Below, in pieces: positions 4,332 through 47,978 of a stretch of DNA of 57,102 nt. The notes under the pieces were generated by a model. It was not told where the DNA came from and made no database searches. It saw nothing but the letters and a program-made list of their open reading frames with translations. Made by a program: the position numbers and the translations under genes. Within the stretch, counting starts at the first letter, position 1, and every line of letters starts with the position of its first letter. The DNA lies in the IMG/VR virus record IMGVR_UViG_3300031774_000016, positions 1 through 57,102 of that record. One strand, given 5' to 3'. Source of the DNA: a virus (taxonomy: Duplodnaviria; Caudoviricetes).

Positions 4332-4431
4332 GTGAATTATAGCAATAAAGTTATGTATTCCAAAGGTTATTTAAATACTTATCAATGGAGATTTTCTTCA
4401 TTAAACATTTCACATACAATAAAACCAGCGG

Positions 4432-4465
4432 ACAGGCAGCTGACACACCTGTGAAAAAATGTGTC
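4432..4465 (+). promoter_or_regulatory. Putative H-type pseudoknot in the TBDR leader
   Basis: ACAGG(4432-36)/CCTGT(4448-52) and GACACA(4442-47)/TGTGTC(4460-65), with A-rich linker GAAAAAA; ends just upstream of SD GAGGAG (4477-82). Confidence 0.5.
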
Positions 4466-4489
4466 TTAACCAAAAAGAGGAGAACGTTA

Positions 4490-7303
4490 ATGAATATACG
4501 TAATCTAACAATATCATTATTGATGACAACAGGATTGTTTGCACAAACTATCGTTGGGGTTGTTAATGGTGGTAGTGAACCATTGGTTGGAGCAAATGTT
4601 GCTGTTGTAGGAACTGATAAAGGTGGTGTAACAGATGAATCTGGTAAATACACTATCGATGTCGGAGCTGAAGGCACATACACATTAACTGCTTCATTCA
4701 TTGGATATTCACCTTTAACATTGGATGTTAAGGTGGGTGATATAGTTGGAACACTCAACTTCGATTTAGAAGAAGATGTTTTAGCTATGACAGCACTTGA
4801 GGTCTTGGCTTCAAGAGCTGATGAAAAGACACCTGTCGCATACACTAATGTGGTAAAAGAAGAATTGGAATTTCGTCTTGGTAGTCAAGATGTTCCAATG
4901 GCTTTGAATACTACACCAAGTGTTTATGCAACTCAACAAGGTGGTGGTGCGGGTGATGCTCGTATCAATGTTCGTGGGTTCAACCAACGAAATGTAGCCG
5001 TAATGATAAATGGTGTTCCCCAAAATGATATGGAGAACGGATGGGTTTATTGGTCTAATTGGGATGGAGTTGCAGATGCAGCACAATCAATTCAGATGCA
5101 AAGAGGTCTATCAGCTGTTAATCTAGCTACACCTTCAATCGGTGGAACTATGAACATTATTACTGATCCTGCTCAACACGAGAAGGGCGGTAAGTTCAAA
5201 CAAGAAACAGGCGCAGGTGGTTTTCTAAAAACTACTCTTAATTACAATAGTGGTTTGATTGGAGAAAAACTCGCGTTAAGTGGTACAATAGTACGAAAAA
5301 CAGGTGATGGACTCATCGACAAAACATGGACAGACGCTTGGGCATATTATTTTGGTGCGAGTTATCAAGCTAATAAAGATAACCGATTTGAATTATACGC
5401 TATCGGAGCTCCACAACGCCATGGTCAAAATCTATACAAACAGAATATCGGTGCTTATGACGCTGAATTTGCTGCGAGTATAGATGGATATGATGAAACA
5501 GCACTTGGAGAAGATGGTTCGTTCAAAGATGTTGGTCGATTCTTTAATCAGAATTGGTCACCTATTAGTTCAGACTATAAAGGAAAGCAATATTGGTATA
5601 TGTATGGTGATAAAACATCGGACAGATACAATCCTAACTTCCTAAATGAAAGAGAAAACTTCTTTCATAAACCATTGGTTAATCTTAACCATTTCCTAAA
5701 TATAAATGAAAAACTTCGTCTTTCATCTGTAGCTTATTGGAGTGGTGGATCTGGTGGTGGTACTGGTACTTATGGTAGGATTCCAACTCTCGACGCCGAT
5801 GGTGTTTTAGGGGGAGAAGATTATAAGTTTTATTATGGTCGTTCTCCTTGGACAAGAGATTGGAATACATTGGTTGCATACAACTCAGGTGACGCAGACA
5901 CAGTTTATGTTGATAAGAGAGTTCTACCAAGAACTCATGGTGATGGTAATAATCAATCAGTAGGTATTCTTCGTAACTCTATTAATCGTCAAAATACTCT
6001 CGGTTTAATCTCCAAATTAAACTACGAAGTTAATGATGATTTAGAGGTTCAAGTTGGTATTGATTGGAGAACTGCTAAAATCGAACACGCTCGTGAAGTT
6101 CGTGATTTGATGGGTGGTGATTACTATATGGATTACGCAGATGATAACTACGCAGATGGTAAAAGAGTTGGTTTAGGTGATATCATTGCATACCACAATC
6201 ATACTACGGTTGATTGGTTAGGTGGATTTGTTCAAGGTAATTATACTTTGGATAATTTAAACCTTTATGGTATGGGTGGTGTATCTAACATCAAGTATAC
6301 TTATCAAGATCATTTTACGGTTGAGAACGAGTTAATTGAAGCACCATCAATCACAACAATTCAAGCAAAAGGTGGAGCAGTTTACGATATAGATGATAAT
6401 GTTAGTGTATTTGCTAACGCTGGATATGTCGAAAAACCACCTATTATGGATAATGTGATTTACTTTGATGGTACGGTTGCACCAGATCCTGCTAATGAGA
6501 AATTCATTAGTTCAGAAGCTGGTGTTAATTTCAAATCTGATAAATTTGCTGTTAAGGCAAATGTATACAATACAGATTGGAAAGACCGAAACCTTACTAA
6601 ATCCGTAACCACAGGACAAGGTGATTCAGGTGATACTGATGTTATCTTCCTTAGTGGTATCCATCAAAAACATCAAGGACTTGAGATAGAAGCTTCTTCA
6701 CAAGTTCATTCAATGTTTAGGATAGACGCGGCACTTAGTTTTGGTAAATGGCAGTTCAATGGAGATGCTAGTGGTAATTATCAAGAAAACGAATATGATG
6801 AACAAGGTAATGTAAGTGGTTTGAAAACAACCAAATACAATTACGCACTTGATGGATTATTCGTAGGTGATATGCCTCAAACTTCATATGTCTTGGGTGG
6901 AACTCTAACTCCTGTTAAAGGACTTAGTATTCAAGCACTCTACAATATCTATGATGATAATTATAGTGATTGGAGTCCTGATTCTCGTGAGTATGATGTT
7001 GACGCAACAGACGATGATGGTAATTCAGTAGATGACGCAGATAGAGAACAAGTATGGATGGCACCTGGATATCAAAAAGTTGATATTCACGCTTCATATA
7101 AACTACCAACCGATTGGACTGGTGGATATGATGTGTCGTTGTCAGCACATTTGTTTAACGCTTTAGATGCTGTATTTGTACAAGATGCAGTAGATCACAG
7201 CCAATACAATAGTTATGGTGACAAAGTTCACGCAGCACACAACGCTGAAGTATTTCTTGGAACACCAAGATACTTTAACTTAGGATTGTCTGTTAATTTC
7301 TAA
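4490..7303 (+). CDS. TonB-dependent outer-membrane receptor with N-terminal carboxypeptidase-regulatory-like domain
   Basis: Start at 4490 (SD GAGGAG, signal peptide ...GLFA|Q); N-terminal GANVAVVGT..G..TD..GKYTI...SFIGY domain; plug INVRGF...VMINGVP...IQMQRG; C-terminal NALD...GTPRYFNLGLSVNF. Confidence 0.95.
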   Translation: MNIRNLTISLLMTTGLFAQTIVGVVNGGSEPLVGANVAVVGTDKGGVTDESGKYTIDVGAEGTYTLTASFIGYSPLTLDVKVGDIVGTLNFDLEEDVLAMTALEVLASRADEKTPVAYTNVVKEELEFRLGSQDVPMALNTTPSVYATQQGGGAGDARINVRGFNQRNVAVMINGVPQNDMENGWVYWSNWDGVADAAQSIQMQRGLSAVNLATPSIGGTMNIITDPAQHEKGGKFKQETGAGGFLKTTLNYNSGLIGEKLALSGTIVRKTGDGLIDKTWTDAWAYYFGASYQANKDNRFELYAIGAPQRHGQNLYKQNIGAYDAEFAASIDGYDETALGEDGSFKDVGRFFNQNWSPISSDYKGKQYWYMYGDKTSDRYNPNFLNERENFFHKPLVNLNHFLNINEKLRLSSVAYWSGGSGGGTGTYGRIPTLDADGVLGGEDYKFYYGRSPWTRDWNTLVAYNSGDADTVYVDKRVLPRTHGDGNNQSVGILRNSINRQNTLGLISKLNYEVNDDLEVQVGIDWRTAKIEHAREVRDLMGGDYYMDYADDNYADGKRVGLGDIIAYHNHTTVDWLGGFVQGNYTLDNLNLYGMGGVSNIKYTYQDHFTVENELIEAPSITTIQAKGGAVYDIDDNVSVFANAGYVEKPPIMDNVIYFDGTVAPDPANEKFISSEAGVNFKSDKFAVKANVYNTDWKDRNLTKSVTTGQGDSGDTDVIFLSGIHQKHQGLEIEASSQVHSMFRIDAALSFGKWQFNGDASGNYQENEYDEQGNVSGLKTTKYNYALDGLFVGDMPQTSYVLGGTLTPVKGLSIQALYNIYDDNYSDWSPDSREYDVDATDDDGNSVDDADREQVWMAPGYQKVDIHASYKLPTDWTGGYDVSLSAHLFNALDAVFVQDAVDHSQYNSYGDKVHAAHNAEVFLGTPRYFNLGLSVNF

Positions 7304-13433: not shown

Positions 13434-14084
13434 ATGCGTAAAGTAATTGATTGTTTTAAAGAAGATAATCCAGTAATAAATAAAAAACTAAGAGAGGTTT
13501 CAGTTGAAGAAGGAAACATTATTGCCACAGAATTATTTCAGATACTTAACGAAAGAAAAGACGGCATTGGGTTGGCAGCGAATCAAGTGGGAATTGATGC
13601 ACAAGTGGCCGTTATCAATGTTATTGAACCTTTGGTTCTCATTAACCCAAAGATTGAAGAACAATGGGATGAAATTCCCTACTACGAAGGATGTTTGAGT
13701 TTTCCAAAACAAGGTATTCATACTAAAAGATATAGGAATATTGTTATCAAAACCGAACAGGCAGAAAGTGGTTGGTACTTTAGTGGGGCAGAAACTACAC
13801 AAGAGGCTAAAGGTAGTTGGGAACAAGACAATAAAGAACAGGATCAAGAACAAAGATTATTAGAAGCTATATGTGTTCAACACGAGATAGACCATTTAAA
13901 TGGAATAACTATACACGATAGAGAAGATAAACCAAAACCAATTATATCTAAAAAGGGATACGGAAGAAACGAAAGAGTTATGATTACCAATGGTAAAGAA
14001 ACACAAGAATTAAAATACAAAAAAGCAAAACCACTTATAGATAGTGGAAAATGGGAAATCTACATAGGAGGCCCGATAACTTAA
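13434..14084 (+). CDS. def: Peptide deformylase
   Basis: All three motifs present: GIGLAANQVG, EGCLS, QHEIDHLNG. Confidence 0.96.
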   Translation: MRKVIDCFKEDNPVINKKLREVSVEEGNIIATELFQILNERKDGIGLAANQVGIDAQVAVINVIEPLVLINPKIEEQWDEIPYYEGCLSFPKQGIHTKRYRNIVIKTEQAESGWYFSGAETTQEAKGSWEQDNKEQDQEQRLLEAICVQHEIDHLNGITIHDREDKPKPIISKKGYGRNERVMITNGKETQELKYKKAKPLIDSGKWEIYIGGPIT

Positions 14085-14782: not shown

Positions 14783-14921
14783 AAAGATGGAGTTATTAAA
14801 AAAGGCTGAGAAAGTAAATTATGTATTTGAGAAGATGGATAAGGAAACACAAGACGCTGTAAAAAGTCTTATTAACCATATGATGGTAGAAAAAACTAAA
14901 AAGGATAATCACATAGTTTGA
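14769..14921 (+). CDS. Small hypothetical protein
   Basis: 3' part of ORF 14655..14921; GGAG SD supports MKKNKK at 14769. Confidence 0.45.
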   Translation: MKKNKKMELLKKAEKVNYVFEKMDKETQDAVKSLINHMMVEKTKKDNHIV

Positions 14922-16102
14922 AAAAATATTTAACATATGATGATGTAAACATAGTTCCAAAGTACTCGGAGTTAAAATCTCGTGATGATGTAGATCTTAC
15001 CACACGATTTACCAAGAATAGAAAACTACACATCCCAATAGTAGCCTCACCGATGGATACCGTAACTGAAGAAGATATGGCCATAGAGATGATGGAAAGG
15101 GGTGCCGTAGGTGTTATACATAGATTTATGTCTATTAAAAAACAATCTCGTATGATGCAATCATTACATTATAAATGGGATAGTTTTTTTAATATAGGTG
15201 ATGGTAAAGAAAGAAGTGCCGATAATGATTATGATGAGTGGTATAAGAAACTAAGTAATAAAAGTAAAATATCCAAATCAGATTGGGAGGATTTTAAAGA
15301 TTACGGAATGTTCACAGATGATATGGCAGAAACCGATAGGATGTGGAGAAACCTACCCTTATGTGCAGCAGTTGGTGTTACAGGAGATTATTTAGAAAGA
15401 GCGAAAGAATTGGTATTAAACGGATGTAATGTACTACTTATAGATGTAGCACACGGCCACCATAAAAATGTAGGAGACGCTATTGAAGAAATCAAGAGTA
15501 AAATATCAAACATCGAAGTCATTGCGGGAAACATTGCGACAAGAGATGGAGCAGAGTTTCTCTGTGAAAAAGGTGCTGACGGCATCAGAGTGGGAATCGG
15601 TAACGGCTCATTATGTGAAACAAGAATCAGGACTGGCGTTGGATTACCTCAGGTTAGTGTTCTTCTTGATGTGTATTCCGTTTGTGACGATTGGGATGTT
15701 CCTATTATTGCTGATGGTGGTATTCGGAATGTGGGTGATGTGGCTAAAGGACTTGGTTGCGGAGCTGACACCATCATGGTTGGTTCGTTACTTTCGGGCA
15801 CCAAAGAGAGTCCAGGTCAAATAGAAAAACAAGGTGAGTGGCCTAACGAAAAATTATTTAAAAAGTACAGAGGTTCTGCATCAAGAGATTCAAAAGGAAA
15901 CGATAAGAATGTTGAGGGAAATCATAAAGTGATTCCTTACAAGGGTAAAGTAAATAGAATACTTAGTGATATAGAAGATGGAATAAAAAGTTCGTGTTCC
16001 TATGTAGGGGCAAATAATCTTGCAGAATATAGATCTTTAGTAGAATTTGTAGAAGTAACAAATGCAGGTCAAGTAGAGGCTCGACCACATTTATTAAGTT
16101 AA
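14918..16102 (+). CDS. IMP dehydrogenase/GMP reductase family enzyme
   Basis: LTYDDV, SPMDTVTE, IDVAHGH, AGNIAT, GIGNGSLCETR (catalytic Cys), IIADGGI, GTKESPG; no CBS pair. Confidence 0.93.
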   Translation: MKKYLTYDDVNIVPKYSELKSRDDVDLTTRFTKNRKLHIPIVASPMDTVTEEDMAIEMMERGAVGVIHRFMSIKKQSRMMQSLHYKWDSFFNIGDGKERSADNDYDEWYKKLSNKSKISKSDWEDFKDYGMFTDDMAETDRMWRNLPLCAAVGVTGDYLERAKELVLNGCNVLLIDVAHGHHKNVGDAIEEIKSKISNIEVIAGNIATRDGAEFLCEKGADGIRVGIGNGSLCETRIRTGVGLPQVSVLLDVYSVCDDWDVPIIADGGIRNVGDVAKGLGCGADTIMVGSLLSGTKESPGQIEKQGEWPNEKLFKKYRGSASRDSKGNDKNVEGNHKVIPYKGKVNRILSDIEDGIKSSCSYVGANNLAEYRSLVEFVEVTNAGQVEARPHLLS

Positions 16103-21003: not shown

Positions 21004-21260
21004 TAATAGAAATAGTATTAGGATTAGTAATTCTTGTTGAATCATATGTAATATGGAATTTAATGAGAAAAACAGAACTACTTGAAACTTGGGTAGAGAA
21101 CTTTACCGATAGGGTAAATAAAGTCCAACAAGAGTTAAGTGAAATAGACTCAACTGGTCATTTTGAATCAGATGACGAAGTGGGTTCTATATTCACATCA
21201 ATAAAAGAAGTAATAAACGATTTAAACAATAATACCGAACAGGAGTTAATTAGTGAGTAA
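21000..21260 (+). CDS. Single-TM coiled-coil protein
   Basis: N-terminal TM; ID..G.FESDDEVG.IF motif. Confidence 0.7.
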   Translation: MIIEIVLGLVILVESYVIWNLMRKTELLETWVENFTDRVNKVQQELSEIDSTGHFESDDEVGSIFTSIKEVINDLNNNTEQELISE

Positions 21261-21987
21261 AGCAACTAAACCAGTAAAGAAGAAGAAAAAACCTAAAAAT
21301 TATTATTTTAATCAGACAACTGAAAATGCTATCATTCGTTACAACAAAACAGATAGTGCTAGGTTAAAGAATAAAATATATACTGAACATATTGCATATG
21401 CTTTTGATAAGTTAGCTGAGAATATTATTCATACATTTAAGTTTTATTATTTTGATGTTCCATCAGAACAAGTAAAACACGAAGTAGTTTCGTTTCTTGT
21501 TATGAATATGCACAAGTTTAAAGAAGGTAAAGGTAAGGCCTTTTCTTATTTTAGTATTGTAGCAAAGAATTATTTAATACTACATAATAATAAAAACTAT
21601 AAGAATTATAAGATTCACGATAAGATGGATGTTCTTGATTATAGTAGAAATATTCGTGAATCTCAAGATATGAAAGATGTTGCAGATTTTAATGAAGAAT
21701 ATGTAAATCAAATGCTAGAGTATTGGGAAGAAAATCTAACTAATATATTTAGACGACAAAAAGATATATTAGTTGCAGATTCTGTATTAGAAATGTTTAG
21801 ACGAAGGGATAATATAGAAAACTTTAATAAGAAAGCTTTATATATTCTTATTCGTGAGATGACTGGTTCTAAAACTCAACACATCACTCGTATAGTTAAT
21901 ATTATGAAAAAATATAATAATCAACTAACAAGAGAGTTTCAACAGACTGGTCAATTAGATACTGCTAACACAGGATCATTTTTGTAA
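21253..21987 (+). CDS. Phage late-transcription sigma factor (T4 gp55-like)
   Basis: KNYYF...AENII...KF..GKGKAFSYFSIVAKNYL resembles the sigma region-2 AF.YF motif of gp55-like factors. Confidence 0.7.
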   Translation: MSKATKPVKKKKKPKNYYFNQTTENAIIRYNKTDSARLKNKIYTEHIAYAFDKLAENIIHTFKFYYFDVPSEQVKHEVVSFLVMNMHKFKEGKGKAFSYFSIVAKNYLILHNNKNYKNYKIHDKMDVLDYSRNIRESQDMKDVADFNEEYVNQMLEYWEENLTNIFRRQKDILVADSVLEMFRRRDNIENFNKKALYILIREMTGSKTQHITRIVNIMKKYNNQLTREFQQTGQLDTANTGSFL

Positions 21988-22033
21988 CAATTTGTTATGT
22001 AGTGTTACACATTTGTGTTACGAAATGATACAC
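21983..22033. promoter_or_regulatory. Putative upstream activator (enhancer) repeats
   Basis: TGTAAC 21983, TGTTAT 21993, TGTTAC 22003, TGTTAC 22016, TGATAC 22026; includes the imperfect palindrome GTGTTAC-GAAAT-GATACAC. Confidence 0.55.
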
Positions 22034-22056
22034 TCTTAAAAAACTTCTAAAAAATA

Positions 22057-22087
22057 AAAGACCTCATTTTTTGAATGGGGTTTTTTT
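22057..22087 (+). terminator. Intrinsic terminator after the sigma gene
   Basis: AAAAGACCTCATT-loop-AATGGGGTTTTTTT. Confidence 0.7.
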
Positions 22088-22156
22088 GTGCCCTTGTAAC
22101 TTCATACATATAGACACTTAAAATTATTTTTATTTTTTTTCTCAAAATAGGGTAGT

Positions 22157-22173
22157 TTGGTATAGTTCTTGTA
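22157..22173 (+). promoter_or_regulatory. Putative sigma54 (-24/-12) promoter for the pilin genes
   Basis: TTGGTATAGTTCTTGTA aligns without gaps to YTGGCACGNNNNTTGCW (GT instead of GC at -12); a hairpin ATAGATT/AATCTAT follows near the expected +1. Confidence 0.6.
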
Positions 22174-22234
22174 GTATATAGGTAGAGATAGATTATTCGA
22201 ATCTATTAAAACGAAATAATAAAGGAGAACTGAA

Positions 22235-22903
22235 ATGTTCGAAACTATAAAAAAACTCGTAAAATCTTTTATGAGAAAACTCAAGAGTACTAATGGTAAT
22301 TCACTAGCTGAATTCGCTGTTACTACTGCAATGATGGCAACACTTGCTACAACAGCCGCACCAAAATTTGGACAAGTTGGAGCAGGAGCTAAAGAAAAGA
22401 AAACAATGAATAACATTGACAAAATTCTTACAGTTGCTAATAACTTTTACAACCAAACATTGTCTGAAGAAGGTAAAGGAAGATTTCCTGGACAAGAGAA
22501 GTATGATGTCGCTGTAGGTGGTGTCACTTTAGCTGAAGGAGCTTCTACTGATGAAACTCTTGAAGCTTATGTGGAAACAATACTTGACCAAAAAGTATCT
22601 TATACATCAGAGTTAGGTGAGTTCGTTTATGTATTTTCACCAGCATCAGATGATGATGACGCATTACAAGGTGATTGGATGAGTTTAGAATCATCAGTTG
22701 GTTACGATGGTAACGATGAAATTGGTGCTCTTGACTTCAAACAAGACTTTGGTAACAATGGTATGACAAGTCCATTTCAGGATGGTTCATACGCATATTT
22801 AGTAATACCAGGAAGTGGTAGTGGTACATCCGCACAAGCTCCTGTTCTTGTAGTAATAGATACTGAGAATCCATCTAAACTACATAAAACTTTAGTACCT
22901 TAA
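22235..22903 (+). CDS. Type IV pilin-like protein (atypical class III signal)
   Basis: Basic leader then G|NSLAE (Glu+5), Ala/Thr-rich helix ending in PKF; AAGGAG SD. Confidence 0.8.
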   Translation: MFETIKKLVKSFMRKLKSTNGNSLAEFAVTTAMMATLATTAAPKFGQVGAGAKEKKTMNNIDKILTVANNFYNQTLSEEGKGRFPGQEKYDVAVGGVTLAEGASTDETLEAYVETILDQKVSYTSELGEFVYVFSPASDDDDALQGDWMSLESSVGYDGNDEIGALDFKQDFGNNGMTSPFQDGSYAYLVIPGSGSGTSAQAPVLVVIDTENPSKLHKTLVP

Positions 22904-22935
22904 TCGAAAATAAAAAAACACCGAAAGGAAAAACA

Positions 22936-23376
22936 ATGAAGAACATATTAAAAAATACATCGAAAGGTTTCACATTGATTGAACTTGTAATGGTTACAAT
23001 CATATTAGGAATCTTAGCAGCTGTAGCAATTCCAAGATATCAACAAACGGTTGATAACGCAGAAGCAACAGCAGAAAAGGCATTTGTAGATATGGTATGG
23101 GCAGGAGTAGAACAAGAAGCTTCTGAAAGACTAACAGATGATGGACTTGAAGCATGGCCTTACAATCCACTAACAGTTATTGGTAGAAGCCGTAACATAT
23201 CAGTTACTCTATTTGAAGGAGTACCTGATGAGGATAATGAATGGCAGTTTAGTGTAGATGCAGCTGGTGAACCAGCAATCTTTCATCATAGAAGAAATGA
23301 CGAAATCTACTACTACAAATACGATTCATTGACATTTGAGTTAGACGAAGAACCTACACTTTACACAAACGAATAA
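22936..23376 (+). CDS. Type IV pilin (canonical prepilin cleavage/methylation site)
   Basis: KG|FTLIELVMVTIILGILAAVAIPRY. Confidence 0.95.
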   Translation: MKNILKNTSKGFTLIELVMVTIILGILAAVAIPRYQQTVDNAEATAEKAFVDMVWAGVEQEASERLTDDGLEAWPYNPLTVIGRSRNISVTLFEGVPDEDNEWQFSVDAAGEPAIFHHRRNDEIYYYKYDSLTFELDEEPTLYTNE

Positions 23377-23426
23377 TTAATGGGGGATTTGAAAATCATT
23401 TCCCCTATTTATTATAAAGAGGTATT

Positions 23427-23870
23427 ATGAGATTTAAACTCACAAATGATATTTTAGAAATTATCTTATTTGGATCAATAATGGTTACTTTAGGGTTCGT
23501 ATTTCTTAACGATGACGAACCCATTAAAGTGCAAAGTGAACCATCAGTTGAAAATTTTGATGACTATCCATTACAAGCATGGCAAACCTTAGATAGAAAA
23601 GGTGGAGAATGTGTAAAGGTTCGTTATCGTGTAGAGAAAAATAAAACTCGTTTATATATGATAAATGCCGATGGAAAGAAAGTTCACACACAACCAATAT
23701 CTTTAAGTCCACACAGAGATGGTAGGGATAGGATAGAAACATATGTTTGGAAACTCTATCGAACCGAGTGGACGGATAAGATAGCACCAGGTGAATACTT
23801 AATCATAGTGGGAACAGAGCATGATAAATCAGCATCAAGAAATCTTACTCTTGAAATCGACATAATGTAA
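23427..23870 (+). CDS. Membrane-anchored beta-sandwich (FlgD-Ig-like?) protein
   Basis: N-terminal TM; YVWKL...IAPGEYLIIV pattern. The fold is a guess. Confidence 0.45.
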   Translation: MRFKLTNDILEIILFGSIMVTLGFVFLNDDEPIKVQSEPSVENFDDYPLQAWQTLDRKGGECVKVRYRVEKNKTRLYMINADGKKVHTQPISLSPHRDGRDRIETYVWKLYRTEWTDKIAPGEYLIIVGTEHDKSASRNLTLEIDIM

Positions 23871-23989
23871 TGTGGATGCCATTTGTTATAATAACATTAG
23901 GTGTTTGTTTGATTTGGGAATTAGATGAAAGACAAACAATAAAAAAATATAAGAAGAAAAAAAGAATTGAACAACAGAGAGAAAAATGA
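23870..23989 (+). CDS. 39-aa single-TM microprotein (not in ORF track)
   Basis: MWMPFVIITLGVCLIWELDERQTIKKYKKKK...; coupled at both ends. Confidence 0.5.
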   Translation: MWMPFVIITLGVCLIWELDERQTIKKYKKKKRIEQQREK

Positions 23990-24618
23990 AATACTTATCA
24001 ATTGTATTATCAATAAGTGTTATATATTCACAAGTAGACGAACAAGTCTTTGCAGACCAAGGCATCGAAAGAACATCTGAATTTAAACGAGGTAAAGCCT
24101 ACGGACAAGATTGTGATGATACAGAATACAGAGATTACAAAGGGTATCCTGCTTGGAAAGGTTATGGTGGATGGATATCTGAATGTGATTCAATTCGTAC
24201 CGTAAATTTAGACAGAGAGTTTGCTGAAAAAGATAAAATCAGACAAAGAGAAAAGGCTATACAAGATAGTATTGATATGAAAGAAGCATTAGTAGAGATA
24301 GATAATTTAGATTTAGATGCTATGTGGGAAAATACGGTTTGGGTTGAGATAACAGATATAGAAGATACTATATATGGAGAAGTAGAACAGATTACAGCTG
24401 TTGCTGGTGTTCGTGGAGCGGAAGCAGAGGACGAGGCATTGAATCATTTATATTATAGAAGAAGTATGAAAGGTCTTGCTCTAATAGACCTACAAAAGGC
24501 CTATGGTAAATTAAAAATAAAAAGAGATAACTTAATTAAAACAAATCCTAAACATCCAAAGTTAGAAAAATTTGACAACCTCTTGTCACAATTACAAATT
24601 AAAATAAATAAATCATAA
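23986..24618 (+). CDS. Exported hypothetical protein
   Basis: Signal peptide MKYLSIVLSISVIYS|Q; TAVAGVRG motif. Confidence 0.65.
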   Translation: MKYLSIVLSISVIYSQVDEQVFADQGIERTSEFKRGKAYGQDCDDTEYRDYKGYPAWKGYGGWISECDSIRTVNLDREFAEKDKIRQREKAIQDSIDMKEALVEIDNLDLDAMWENTVWVEITDIEDTIYGEVEQITAVAGVRGAEAEDEALNHLYYRRSMKGLALIDLQKAYGKLKIKRDNLIKTNPKHPKLEKFDNLLSQLQIKINKS

Positions 24619-24724
24619 ACTAACAAAAAAGTTGTGTTGTTTCTAAATGTTTAAGATATTTAGTATTGGAAGATGATGACACTTCCAACAAAATAGTAAC
24701 TTATCATTTAAAAAGGAGACACAC

Positions 24725-25051
24725 ATGAAGCGACTAATGTGTATGTTCTTAATGGGCTTGATTTCCGCTCAAACATTAAAAACAGCACTACCACAACCAA
24801 AAGAACCTTTCGTTCTTACTTACTACGACATTAGAGAAGATATACTTTTAAAGACGCCACACGGTAAAATAACAGTAGATTTTTTTATAAATGAGAGAGG
24901 AGAAGTAGAGGATCCAGTTATCAAGGATACTTTCAATATCAACCTTAATGAAGTAGTGTTGGATAAATTAAAAGAAACATCTTATTATCCAGCAACTCAG
25001 AATGGACGACCAGTTCGAATCAAATATACATTACCAATAGTATTTAAATAA
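24725..25051 (+). CDS. Stand-alone TonB C-terminal domain with signal peptide
   Basis: GKITVDFFINERGEVEDPVI...LNEVVLD...YYPATQNGRPVRIKYTLPIVFK matches the TonB_C pattern; no long TM anchor or Pro-rich linker. Confidence 0.85.
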   Translation: MKRLMCMFLMGLISAQTLKTALPQPKEPFVLTYYDIREDILLKTPHGKITVDFFINERGEVEDPVIKDTFNINLNEVVLDKLKETSYYPATQNGRPVRIKYTLPIVFK

Positions 25052-25061
25052 CGGAGGCAAA

Positions 25062-25379
25062 ATGTTAGAATACTTTTTATTGGGAGTTTTAGCACCTATC
25101 TTTCTAAATCTTATGCACCTATGTGTAGGAATATATGTAGTAATTCAAAGAGGAAATATGATGTCATTGGGATTTTCAGGTATGGGATTTATAACCAAAA
25201 CCATAGGGATGATATTTCTCACTTGGTTAGGAATAGTTAAGCTGAATATGGATTTTCAAATCTATGTTCCGTTATTAACATTCTTTTGGTTCTTCACTCA
25301 TATCGTAGAAGCCTTTGTGATTAATCATTATATGAAAGAGAACGTACCAAAATTTCTACAAGACATACAACTCAATTAG
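25062..25379 (+). CDS. Small multi-TM protein (weakly AtpI-like)
   Basis: Three hydrophobic helices; GGAGG SD. Confidence 0.6.
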   Translation: MLEYFLLGVLAPIFLNLMHLCVGIYVVIQRGNMMSLGFSGMGFITKTIGMIFLTWLGIVKLNMDFQIYVPLLTFFWFFTHIVEAFVINHYMKENVPKFLQDIQLN

Positions 25380-25396
25380 TAAATAACTATTAAGCA

Positions 25397-25426
25397 AAAA
25401 AAAGGGGAACAATAGTTCCCCTTTTT
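25397..25426. terminator. Bidirectional intrinsic terminator
   Basis: AAAAAAAGGGGAAC-AATA-GTTCCCCTTTTT between convergent genes. Confidence 0.85.
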
Positions 25427-25442
25427 CATTATCCGATAATAG

Positions 25443-25664
25443 CTATTTACGAAATAAACCCACCAACACCAATAATGCGACTAATCCAGCGAAACCGGAT
25501 TCGCCGAAGTTATTTATGATTGATGTCAGGTTACCAATAACATTTACGCCAAAGATTCCACTCCCAAACAATACTTCGCTTACAGCTCCGATTGCTATGA
25601 AAGAGGCGAGTAGTTGAGCGATATCATCTACCCAACCTTTGACTAATGTGATGACTTCCTTCAT
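25443..25664 (-). CDS. Small two-TM membrane protein
   Basis: GGGAG SD on the minus strand; EVLFG...NVIGNL...FGESGFAGLVALLVL. Confidence 0.75.
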   Translation of the reverse strand: MKEVITLVKGWVDDIAQLLASFIAIGAVSEVLFGSGIFGVNVIGNLTSIINNFGESGFAGLVALLVLVGLFRK

Positions 25665-25866
25665 TAGTTATCTCCCGTTGTTTTTTCTTATCATTTAACA
25701 AAAAAGGGATATTTAACTTCCGTTTTCTGTGTCGAATAAAATCCGACATATATAATTATAGTATATACAAATTTTTTGTTAGCAATATATATGCACCGAT
25801 TTTTCAGTTAGTTAATATTTATTTATGAGTTATAATATCTATTTTTAATCAATATAAGGAAATAAA

Positions 25867-26259
25867 ATGGCACAAGATTATGAATTATTTGAGGGTAAGT
25901 CACTATCATCATTGTTCAAAGATATTTACGATAATTCCAAACACAATAAAACACAACTTGAAATATTAGTAAAAGAAGTTGCTGGATATATTAAAGATGG
26001 GGATATGGCTATTCAGTTAATTCCTATGATAAAAGAGTATTTGGAAATCAATGTAAAGAACGATGAACAACTTGTCAAACTGGCAACGGTTGTACAGAGG
26101 TTAATTGCCGCTGAAGGTAAGGGTAGTAGTGAATCCGAATTTGGTTTATCAGAGAAAGAAAAGGCTCAATTACTCACAAGTATAGATGATGTAGTGGTTG
26201 ATATGCAAAAAAAATCAGATAGTCTTACACAAGATATAAAGTCAGTTAAGGATAATTAA
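25867..26259 (+). CDS. Conserved phage protein (first gene of the baseplate block)
   Basis: PMIKEYLEINVKNDEQLVKLA motif; late-type promoter motif upstream. Confidence 0.65.
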   Translation: MAQDYELFEGKSLSSLFKDIYDNSKHNKTQLEILVKEVAGYIKDGDMAIQLIPMIKEYLEINVKNDEQLVKLATVVQRLIAAEGKGSSESEFGLSEKEKAQLLTSIDDVVVDMQKKSDSLTQDIKSVKDN

Positions 26260-45239: not shown

Positions 45240-45680
45240 ATGAATAATGGAAAATTAATTAAAATTACTTTTAAAACATTATGTGTCATGGGATTAGCAT
45301 TTATACTATGTGGTAATGTTGTAAATGGTCAAGATAAAAAACCAAAGGTAGAAGTTATCAATGATGATAATTTTAAGAAATCAATATCAAAGGGATTTTT
45401 TCTTATAAAATTTACATCTGGTTATCAAATGACTACACTTGATAAGAAATTATTTGATGGAGTTAGTGGATTTGAAGGTTGTAAAATAATCGAAGTTGAT
45501 GCGGGAAATGCAAAAAAAGTAATTAAAAAACTTAGAATACGAAACTATCCATCTTTAGCATTATTTCACAACGGAAAAAAGAAAGAAGTTTGGAAGGCCG
45601 ATATGGATGGTGTTGTAGATATTAATAATAAAGATATCAAAAAGGCTATTTCAAATGCGATAGCAGGTGATGTGTTTTAA
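45240..45680 (+). CDS. Exported thioredoxin-fold protein lacking CxxC
   Basis: INDDNFKKSI..GFFLIKF...EVD...LRIRNYPSLALFHNGK; signal-like N-terminus. Confidence 0.7.
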   Translation: MNNGKLIKITFKTLCVMGLAFILCGNVVNGQDKKPKVEVINDDNFKKSISKGFFLIKFTSGYQMTTLDKKLFDGVSGFEGCKIIEVDAGNAKKVIKKLRIRNYPSLALFHNGKKKEVWKADMDGVVDINNKDIKKAISNAIAGDVF

Positions 45681-45683
45681 TGT

Positions 45684-46340
45684 ATGAACATCGCAACGAT
45701 AGCTGGACATTTAGCATTTGGGTTAATAGCATTTTCGTTTCTTGTAAAGGATATACTATATCTTAGACTACTTTCAATTTTAGCAAGTCTATTCTCAGTA
45801 TTTTATAATTTTTATATACCAGACCAACCCATGTGGTTGGCAATCAATTGGAACATTGTCTTTGTTCTTGTAAACCTTTATCACATCGCTGTTATCATAT
45901 ATGAAAAACGACCTGTCCACATGGACGATAAGAATAATGAGTTATACGAAACCCTATTTAAAGATTTAACACAAGTAGAGTATTTAAAAATTAGTAAGGC
46001 TGCTATTTGGAAAACATTTCAACCTAATGAATTTATTACAAGACAAACACATCTTGTTCCAGATTTAGTATTGATATACAATGGAACAATAGATGTATTA
46101 GTAAATGGTAAAAAGGTGGCACAATTAAAAGATGGACAATTTGTTGGTGAGATGTCATTCCTTACAGAGAAATCAGCAACTGCAACTTGTATTGTAAAAC
46201 ATCCGTGTGAATGTTTAGTTTGGAAACAAAGGGAGTTTAAAGAATTGTTAAAAAGAAACCCATCATTATATTTCACACTTCAAACTCTGTTGAGTGCACA
46301 AGTTTCAGATAATCTTGTAAGTAGTTCAAAATCTGAATAG
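45684..46340 (+). CDS. Popeye-like membrane protein with cyclic-nucleotide-binding domain
   Basis: Three TMs (DILYLRLL...WNIVFVLVNLYHI), ELY..LF, then LIYNG.IDV...LKDGQFVGEMSFL...ATAT cNMP fold. Confidence 0.85.
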   Translation: MNIATIAGHLAFGLIAFSFLVKDILYLRLLSILASLFSVFYNFYIPDQPMWLAINWNIVFVLVNLYHIAVIIYEKRPVHMDDKNNELYETLFKDLTQVEYLKISKAAIWKTFQPNEFITRQTHLVPDLVLIYNGTIDVLVNGKKVAQLKDGQFVGEMSFLTEKSATATCIVKHPCECLVWKQREFKELLKRNPSLYFTLQTLLSAQVSDNLVSSSKSE

Positions 46341-47111: not shown

Positions 47112-47978
47112 ATGAATACTGATATAGGATTTGATAAAACTTATGTCATCAGTTTAAAATCACGACAGGCTAGGCGTGATACAATAAAACAAACACTAAA
47201 TGGAATTGATTATGAGTTTGTTGATGCAATAAATGGTAAAAATCTTAAAATAAGAAAATTAATTAAGGATGGTATATTAAATACAGAGTATTATGATCCA
47301 GGTGGAACTTGTAATCGTAGTATTATAGGTTGTAGTTTATCTCATATAAAAACATGGAAAAAATTTTTAAAAAGTGGACTCGATACTTGTTTAATATTAG
47401 AAGATGATATTTTTTTGACCAAAGAAATTGTTAGGTCACAGATGGATGTGGAATATGGAAAGCCACGAAATGAATATCAAATGATACTTGATGAAATAAA
47501 TTCATTAGATACTTGGGATGTTATTTTTTTAGGAAAAAAAACCGAAGATGTAGATGGTGAGAGAATTACGGATAATTTAATTAAACCAATATTTGGAACT
47601 TCACGATATGGTGCACATGCATATATCATAAACAAAAATAGTGTGAAAAAATTACTTGATAGTTATGTACCAATAACTTATGCAGTGGATGTTTTTATGG
47701 ATGAGACATTATCTAATTTAGATATAGTTTCAGTTAAAAAGTCTTTTATTAGACAAAGGGGTGATTTGGTAGAAGATGAACTTTTACTTAATCCACAACC
47801 AAAAAACACACCAGATTCCGATACATTTTGGAATCTATTATATAAAGGAAAATTAACTACTTGTTCCGTTGATGATATAGTAGAATCAATAGAATTTTCT
47901 AATTACAAAAAGAGTTCAAATCATTTAAAAGTAGGAAACCAACCAATGGTTAGCATGAAACTTAGGACTTATGGTTAA
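47112..47978 (+). CDS. Glycosyltransferase family 25
   Basis: YVISL..RQARR, FVDAING, IGCSLSH, LILEDD, GAHAYII, AVD. Confidence 0.9.
   Translation: MNTDIGFDKTYVISLKSRQARRDTIKQTLNGIDYEFVDAINGKNLKIRKLIKDGILNTEYYDPGGTCNRSIIGCSLSHIKTWKKFLKSGLDTCLILEDDIFLTKEIVRSQMDVEYGKPRNEYQMILDEINSLDTWDVIFLGKKTEDVDGERITDNLIKPIFGTSRYGAHAYIINKNSVKKLLDSYVPITYAVDVFMDETLSNLDIVSVKKSFIRQRGDLVEDELLLNPQPKNTPDSDTFWNLLYKGKLTTCSVDDIVESIEFSNYKKSSNHLKVGNQPMVSMKLRTYG

Follow-up and report, generated by a model that had tools for sequence, protein, structure and literature searches.

A cassette of type IV pilus subunits, apparently derived from the host, in large marine myophages that most likely infect Marinimicrobia (SAR406)

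Tip and Aqs1 are non-pilin phage proteins that inhibit type IV pili, reportedly by acting on PilB, and Zip, in the descriptions available, is a further non-pilin phage inhibitor of these pili. The closest described system is P-FimU from F10-like Pseudomonas aeruginosa prophages (Sztanko et al., Cell Rep 2026, PMC12952977); it enters the pilus without loss of function, and experiments showed that it keeps off phages which attach to the pilus tip. The same paper reports PilA-like genes (P-PilA) in prophages of Xylella fastidiosa as well as four groups of virulent phages; their products are about 50% identical to the host pilin, and the authors propose for them a block of adsorption (PMC12952977). 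In the present work we analysed a virus record of IMG/VR (IMGVR_UViG_3300031774_000016), whose 57,102 bases are called the window here, meaning the whole stretch of DNA. CheckV estimates its completeness at about 32%, which corresponds to a phage of roughly 180 kb, and it carries an island of pilin and envelope genes, A to G (Table 1). An earlier note, made from the DNA letters, knew of no described system like this island, a statement that cannot be upheld, since prophage FimU mimics and phage PilA-like genes are published in PMC12952977. The gene content examined here suggests that the island is host-derived pilus-subunit cargo of a marine myophage, that the host is most likely a Marinimicrobia (SAR406) bacterium, and that the phage subunits may be built into the host pilus and change its surface.

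Both P-FimU, as described in PMC12952977, and the island are phage copies of a host pilus structural subunit in which the parts needed for incorporation are kept while the surface has diverged; both rely totally on the host machine, and conservation of the promoter is remarked upon there too. P-FimU, however, is one minor (tip) pilin of temperate phages of a cultured pathogen and was tested experimentally, whereas the island, known from its genes alone, belongs to cassettes with up to four pilins, the probable major subunit among them, together with the non-pilin proteins C and D, is carried by large marine myophages and has a promoter of the host sigma-54 type. P-PilA resembles the island in being phage copies of a major pilin, some of them in virulent phages, but it was reported as single genes found by BLAST, whereas A matches neither the N_methyl nor a PilA family. 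Tip, Aqs1 and Zip likewise are phage proteins that alter pilus behaviour to exclude other phages, yet they are described as small inhibitors acting on PilB or PilZ, which halt or modify pilus dynamics, and not as fibre subunits. Searches for the module itself in the literature (SAR406-virus pilins, marine auxiliary pilins, sigma-54 phage pilins) found no paper, in a library without most subscription journals.

No match for gene A was obtained in Pfam (E-values up to 0.01) or NCBIfam (up to 0.1), PF07963 and TIGR02532 included, nor in PHROG. In an alignment of 81 phage and host sequences the basic leader of 21 residues ends in an invariant Gly21, Glu26 (that is, +5) and Phe27 are invariant as well, and a hydrophobic stretch of about 20 residues follows. 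The alignment profile gave weak matches in the PDB to geopilin (2.5e-4) and the major pilin MshA (1.5e-3). AlphaFold modelling on the same 81 sequences reached a predicted local distance difference test score (pLDDT) of 82.3, with a helix of 57 residues (23–79) followed by an alpha/beta domain; from 15 sequences the score was 40.6, and a usable model required the added host homologues. Aligned with VIA-align to 48,161 chains, the model placed type IV pilins and pseudopilins at ranks 1–15 and 17, at modest Z-scores of 5.5 to 4.0, and Foldseek found no match for it in the PDB. Judged by motif, PDB profile matches and predicted fold, A is a type IV pilin. The profile matches more than 4,207 clusters (90% identity) in a collection of 5.8 billion proteins, many of them from ocean surveys, and none of the best 120 listed clusters bears a functional name. 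B is, by its sequence, a textbook type IV prepilin, scoring 30 bits against N_methyl PF07963 (cut-off 21.2, E 3.3e-7) and 28.4 bits against TIGR02532 (cut-off 16.3), with a GspG-like N-terminus; it is not a FimU orthologue, since its GspH match reaches 24 bits where the cut-off is 80. Related cassettes have up to three pilin paralogues, and B is of the third type; the sublineage of the window has lost the first two.

Homologues of A could be located in cellular genomes by a profile search of one-genome-per-species collections, which gave 45 loci (19 titled Marinimicrobia or Neomarinimicrobiota, 22 without taxon, 4 with other labels), several of them on contigs of 70 to 583 kb, including one of 220 and one of 583 kb. 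The host loci contain 77 near-full-length A genes, whose N-termini are almost the same as those of phage A and which stand in tandem sets of one to five, followed by a pilin gene B1 and then B2. B is 42–45% identical to host B1, and host B1 is up to 72% identical to a phage B1. The host has A and B in the same order as the phage, within a complete gene cluster for a type IV filament. Three A loci and their continuations, scanned against Pfam and NCBIfam, show this supercluster to open with co-directional genes for a response regulator, a prepilin peptidase, a PilB/GspE-type ATPase, a sigma-54 activator and a platform protein, after which come the A genes, then B1, B2 and three further pilins, a LamG protein, an AAA_22/PilM-like and a PilO-like protein, a GspB-like protein and the secretin, a CHASE2 adenylate/guanylate cyclase, an FG-GAP giant and a TPR protein, and finally a 150-amino-acid secreted protein homologous to D, which is found 16–30 kb downstream of A and B on the same contig as the A cluster. 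With mannose-sensitive haemagglutinin (MSH) pili, type II secretion and type IVa pili this cluster shares the peptidase, the PilB/GspE ATPase, the PilC/GspF platform, pilins with Gly-Phe-x-x-x-Glu, the PilM/PilO-like proteins and the secretin; unlike them, it has an A family foreign to the libraries and an activator of sigma-54 within the cluster. The ATPase carries a c-di-GMP motif of the MshE type (40.2 bits, cut-off 38). Its best-scoring model is PilB or GspE and that of the secretin is PilQ, each short of the equivalog cut-off, and MshL reaches 102 bits against 250; since none of the equivalog cut-offs of PilB, GspE, GspF, PilQ and MshL is attained, the host system fits no named subtype.

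Further homologues of island genes are present in the same hosts. The C-terminal half of D is homologous to the 150-amino-acid host protein (profile positions 98–206, E 1e-38 to 1e-44) in all five host genomes scanned, G matches at 35–39% identity in all five, F at 60% in two of them, and E has a counterpart of the same design, described below. In addition, the SusC-like receptor encoded elsewhere in the window shares 68% identity along its entire length with a chromosomal gene from a genome that has a Marinimicrobia-type A cluster. As homologues of A, B, D, E, F, G and the receptor all occur in these genomes, we consider a Marinimicrobia bacterium the most likely host. In the host loci L122 (10000–20600) and L130 (11600–16100) about 10–15 tandem B1-like pilin genes follow the A genes, in contrast to a single B1 in other host genomes. 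A PilT-family ATPase exceeds its cut-off in four of the five host genomes (G001, G003, G004, G005) with a second PilB-like ATPase encoded about 11 kb away, which suggests that these hosts possess another type IV filament system beside that of A.

The prepilin peptidase, the ATPase and the platform are encoded with the host A homologues and not with phage A. Among the 55 window open reading frames scanned, no family of pilus ATPase, platform, secretin or prepilin peptidase matched, as the earlier note had said of the window, and a wider scan, of five large viral relatives (66–72% complete), found none of these families over its cut-off. Consequently, the phage appears to carry subunits only. 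The earlier proposal that the phage feeds its own subunits into a host machine is borne out to this extent, namely that a complete host cluster contains the homologues of A and B and that no machine genes were found in the phage.

Conservation along A is strongly uneven. Identity of window A to its four nearest host copies amounts to 88% over the first half of the N-terminal helix, 52% over the C-terminal sheet and only 19% over the central region. In known pili the first half of the pilin helix forms the fibre core, and from pilin architecture the central region would be exposed on the pilus surface. Pilin trees against host pilins, which the earlier note had recommended, were realised for A with FastTree on 121 sequences. 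The phage sequences are nested among host copies, forming at least three clades inside one host paralogue group, the one made up of the A copies that adjoin B1; the main phage clade, with 42 sequences including that of the window, sits on a long stem of 0.79 changes per site. Three or more separate clades within a single host group argue for repeated exchange between phage and host.

The promoter motif upstream of A, reading TGGTAT-N5-TTGT in the window, suggests regulation by the host. Within the window, TGGYAY-N5-TTGY occurs twice against 0.79 matches expected, and with a pattern in which the last G was also allowed as T it precedes A at a conserved distance in 47 of the 51 distinct regions from phages and in 66 of the 74 from hosts. 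Host copies read the canonical sigma-54 consensus, TGGCAC/T-N5-TTGC. Across six host loci, 15 of the 17 strict matches immediately precede an A gene, and the other strand has none; RpoN is encoded in all five host genomes, and the activator inside the pilus cluster. That each host A copy has its own promoter of the sigma-54 type is the usual arrangement for a major pilin gene, and from the tandem copies, the promoters and the position in the cluster A is probably the major pilus subunit. At 22158–22172 the GG at -24 and the spacing are present, and the -12 element is TTGT, as in most phage copies, in the host TTGC. Both terminators that the earlier note had placed around the island, at 22057 and 25397, could be folded: the upstream hairpin reaches -13.2 kcal/mol (z -2.64) and does not appear on the list of the consensus terminator scan, and the one between F and G reaches -17.2 kcal/mol (z -6.5) and is listed on both strands. 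Framed by these terminators, the island looks like a separate transcription unit that would be read by the host sigma-54 polymerase. A conserved TATATAGGTA-like stretch following the motif was also considered as a general phage promoter and rejected, the window holding 33 matches against 26 expected.

Contigs identical to the window that cover A and B were found in RNA-library runs of three studies (X1, X2, X7), DNA carry-over being possible. In three runs there is little or nothing on the flanks outside 22136–25873, and the cover begins in the bin that holds the promoter. It should be noted that the runs were picked with the island itself, that they consist of contigs and not reads, and that the conserved A of relatives recruits as well; the cover thus shows presence in RNA libraries and says nothing on relative expression or transcript start.

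The cassette recurs widely among viruses, which answers the earlier suggestion to look for it in related phages. In IMG/VR, 42 loci were matched by A and 61 by B, at identities of 41% to 99%, and in these loci A is followed by one to three B-type pilins, by C and D in either order and by a variable set of E, F and G. Duplicates were removed according to the DNA of their best-matching B, and flanks were required, which left 35 distinct viral cassettes; all of them hold A and D, 30 hold C, 13 E, 6 F and 13 G; the five cassettes without C still hold A, B and D. In the map of cassettes and flanks, 25 separate viral contigs show the left junction, at which a 244-amino-acid gene is followed by A, and 15 show the right one, leading into a 130-amino-acid gene and the baseplate genes. 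The continuity of the assembly, which the earlier note had wanted confirmed, is supported by these counts, and a chimeric assembly can be excluded, since the same junctions recur in separate viral contigs. Two cultured relatives, Flavobacterium phage immuto and Microcystis phage Mel-JY01, have the same neighbours on both sides without the island, their homologues of the 244- and 130-amino-acid genes lying adjacent with gaps of 33 and 5 bases, which marks the island as extra DNA at a conserved junction. The cassette is also found in other phage backbones: among the 21 cassettes with wide flanks, 16 have neither flank gene, and the neighbours there are genes for gp32, RecA, a DnaB-like helicase, ThyX, PhoH, ClpP or DNA ligase. 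In the flank-complete set all cassette genes scanned are open reading frames, and pairwise ratios of nonsynonymous to synonymous change (dN/dS) are 0.19–0.23 for A to E, with dS near saturation. By these measures the cassette is under purifying selection and gives no sign of decay. Absence from all relatives combined with signs of decay, which the earlier note had named as an argument against its proposal, is therefore not what we observe, as the cassette recurs at a dN/dS of about 0.2. No integrase turned up in general scans of the window and the flanking loci, which come from incomplete genomes.

C and D go beyond the host complement. An alignment of 24 C sequences shows an N-terminal membrane helix with an invariant Glu near its start and no Gly-1, so that C may be an uncleaved pilin-like protein; the leader is between 0 and about 14 residues long. 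None of the five host genomes contains a C homologue, no PDB profile matched, and its neighbours in the protein atlas are viral and unnamed only; by these searches C is phage-specific. In D, the half shared with the host is preceded by an N-terminal Cys-containing domain that is specific to the phages. Twenty D members gave no Pfam family and no match in the protein atlas, and among 1.84 billion representatives only 163 relatives, mostly fragments, were found. Prediction of a complex between D and the periplasmic portion of C scored 0.00, which is no verdict either way. C and D would act as accessory factors.

We propose a model in which the phage subunits are built into the host pilus and give it a phage-specified surface, the benefit being receptor masking, and we hold this to be somewhat better than an even chance. 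Host RNA polymerase with sigma-54, probably together with the activator from the host pilus cluster, would transcribe A to F; the host prepilin peptidase would cleave A and B, and the host machine would polymerise them with or in place of host subunits. Through the replaced central region of A the pilus would then gain its phage-specified surface, since A keeps the assembly helix (88%) and has its centre exchanged (19%), and phages that bind the pilus, among them relatives and offspring of the phage itself, would stop adsorbing to the infected cell. The kept Gly-1 and Glu+5 signals, the kept helix and the divergent centre fit subunits that enter a host fibre and alter its surface. Receptor masking is ranked first, ahead of maintenance and, third, poisoning of the pilus, because the sequence pattern fits a surface change and because replacement by P-FimU has been shown in Pseudomonas. 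A more specific and more tentative version, which we regard as possible yet well short of probable, would see in the cassette a pilus 'serotype-conversion' module, which swaps the sigma-54-controlled major subunit of SAR406 and its partner pilins for phage alleles and recombines repeatedly with the tandem pilin arrays of the host, with C and the added domain of D fitting the host machine to the phage subunits.

Several observations weigh against this model. C has neither cleavage site nor host homologue and D has an added domain, and as C and this domain are found in phages only, the module is more than a simple subunit swap. The structural Z-scores of A do not exceed 5.5 and Foldseek found no match, and as to A being the major subunit, it is the B1-type pilins that form an expanded family in two host genomes. 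The phage motif is mostly TGGTAC-N5-TTGT and the host motif TGGCAC-N5-TTGC, differing at two positions; dependence on sigma-54 is not certain, since the canonical GC at -12 reads GT in the phage. Cleavage and incorporation of A and B, the blocking of other phages and any use of the pilus as receptor by this phage or its competitors are presumed, and for an uncultured host. The host call itself rests on gene similarity to metagenome-assembled and single-amplified genomes, into which viral contigs can be mis-binned, and one of the 45 A loci, L101, is clearly phage-like.

The subunits might alternatively be maintenance cargo in the manner of cyanophage psbA, fresh subunits keeping the host pilus working through a long latent period once transcription by the host wanes, and we consider this a minority reading, rather unlikely but to be taken seriously. 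Cyanophage psbA is a host-derived auxiliary gene that sustains metabolism, and in the island, too, a phage copy of a host structural protein would be used with the host assembly machinery. The pilus may serve particle attachment or the capture of DNA or nutrients, and the phage receptor and the TonB_C protein E would aid uptake. Carriage of subunits without a machine, the retained promoter type and assembly signals, the resemblance of E to a normal host protein, and the presence in the same genome of the receptor that is 68% identical to its host counterpart, of peptide deformylase, an IMPDH/GMP reductase-family protein, Hsp20 and thioredoxin are all in line with such a role. Maintenance, however, needs no change of surface, yet identity to the nearest host copies drops from 88% in the helix of A to only 19% in its centre, and the main phage A clade has the long stem of 0.79 changes per site; nor does it call for a C without host counterpart or a new domain on D. 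Unlike psbA, A has its exposed part replaced, which points to a change of surface identity.

Dominant-negative poisoning, in which phage subunits or an uncleavable C clog the platform and block assembly or retraction, removing an entry route and saving energy, appears improbable to us. In its favour, C, with a pilin-like helix, an invariant Glu and no Gly-1, could bind to the machine and stay there; of the three B-type pilins, two are gone from the window lineage; and inhibition of assembly is raised as a possibility for truncated phage PilA-like proteins in PMC12952977. A and B, by contrast, retain all features of processing and polymerisation, with whole globular domains under purifying selection, up to four full-length pilins in host order would be needless for a poison, and the five cassettes without C still hold A, B and D.

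The second part of the earlier proposal, a jamming of TonB, concerns E, which scores 37.9 bits against TonB_C PF03544 (cut-off 24.6, E 2.6e-9). E has a cleavable signal peptide and, at 108 amino acids, no membrane anchor and no proline-rich spacer; with nothing to link it to ExbB/ExbD it would be a periplasmic protein consisting of TonB_C only and not a TonB. As a decoy it would bind TonB boxes, jam receptors and exclude phages that need TonB, and periplasmic TonB fragments do inhibit TonB-dependent transport in Escherichia coli. The best host match of E, however, is a secreted, anchor-less TonB_C-only protein of 122 amino acids (35% identity, E 3e-12), which has the same design, whereas the host TonB (204 amino acids, with anchor and Pro-rich spacer) is a more distant match. 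E is moreover present in only 13 of the 35 cassettes, and a decoy would disable the TonB-dependent receptor that the phage itself carries. The decoy is hence a doubtful reading that we do not follow, and E, F and G are better described, from their host matches, as further host-derived envelope cargo and not a TonB block. The predicted signal peptides of the D and E families mostly end in SQ or AQ; in Bacteroidota-type exported proteins Gln follows the cleavage site, and the endings resemble this pattern, which fits a host of the Fibrobacterota–Chlorobiota–Bacteroidota (FCB) group. That the island might be functionless passenger DNA or a chimeric assembly, as the empty junction in the two cultured relatives and the variability of E, F and G could suggest, we judge next to impossible in view of the junctions repeated in 25 and 15 separate viral contigs, the open frames in all cassette genes scanned with dN/dS near 0.2, a GC content equal to that of the rest of the window and the cassettes in other backbones beside gp32, RecA, PhoH, ClpP and DNA ligase genes.

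The features of the island are collected in Table 1. Its genes as listed in the earlier note, namely the two prepilins, the TonB_C protein and the membrane or exported proteins, were all recovered in the places given there. The long open reading frames of the window are all on the + strand except one, and GC is even at about 0.32 across the window, island included. Upstream, the island follows genes for a phosphohydrolase, an 86-amino-acid protein and the 244-amino-acid protein (21253–21987); downstream come the 130-amino-acid gene, which opens the tail block and which G usually adjoins, a 501-amino-acid gene and the baseplate block, in which gp25 and gp6-like proteins are encoded. Of the flanks described in the earlier note, the baseplate block thus stands, while the label of a late sigma gene for 21253–21987 could not be confirmed, no match being found in Pfam, PHROG, NCBIfam or the PDB. 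In phages immuto and Mel-JY01 this gene is kept beside the tail block, at 39–42% identity.

Table 1. Predicted genes, hairpins and promoter motif of the island, in window positions.
Feature	Coordinates	Strand	Description
Gene A	22235-22903	+	222-amino-acid prepilin, leader ending Gly21, Glu at +5
Gene B	22936-23376	+	146-amino-acid type IV prepilin, Gly11 then FTLIE
Gene C	23427-23870	+	147 amino acids, membrane-anchored by single N-terminal helix
Gene D	23986-24618	+	210 amino acids, secreted (signal peptide)
Gene E	24725-25051	+	108-amino-acid secreted anchor-less TonB_C protein
Gene F	25062-25379	+	105-amino-acid multi-pass membrane protein
Gene G	25443-25664	-	73-amino-acid membrane protein
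Terminator-like hairpin and U run	22056-22086	+	closes transcription unit of upstream sigma-like gene
Bidirectional terminator hairpin	25399-25426	both	between convergent genes F and G
Sigma-54-type promoter motif	22158-22172	+	TGGYAY-N5-TTGY, 63 nucleotides upstream of A start codon

Outside the island, the window encodes the SusC-like TonB-dependent receptor at 4385–7303 (+), a protein of 972 amino acids with CarboxypepD_reg and Plug domains and no internal stop. Further cargo of cellular type, at 1330–1803, 13434–14084, 14918–16102, 45240–45680 and 47112–47978, comprises Hsp20, peptide deformylase, an IMPDH/GMP reductase-family protein, thioredoxin and a family 25 glycosyltransferase. At 45684–46340 (+) a membrane protein with a cyclic nucleotide monophosphate (cNMP)-binding, POPDC-like character is encoded, and a homologue of it in another phage lineage (L025, 11440–12090) lies about 1.3 kb downstream of the pilin cassette. 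A signalling link between this phage protein and the CHASE2 cyclase of the host pilus supercluster is possible.

What is known already is the principle of subunit replacement, published in 2026 (PMC12952977). New are its multi-gene form including a probable major subunit, the promoter of the sigma-54 type and the link to SAR406, as well as the unannotated A family with its filament cluster and its abundance in ocean data. In our model a defence principle that was shown for one minor pilin of a Pseudomonas prophage would be extended to a whole subunit module in large marine myophages. SAR406 is among the ocean's most abundant uncultured phyla, and we know of no cultured phage for Marinimicrobia. 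Only small viral fragments associated with single-amplified genomes are reported by Labonté et al. (2015, PMC4611503). The genes described here provide a gene-based host link to this phylum for a large set of viral contigs and define an unannotated pilin family, A, together with its filament cluster in Marinimicrobia. The promoter motif suggests that the gene set is wired to the sigma-54 regulation of the host pilins, which is unusual for phage genes. If the tentative reading as a serotype-conversion module is true, phages would be both a selective force on SAR406 pilin diversity and a vehicle for it, and the hosts of an abundant family of marine viral contigs could readily be assigned with the module as a marker.

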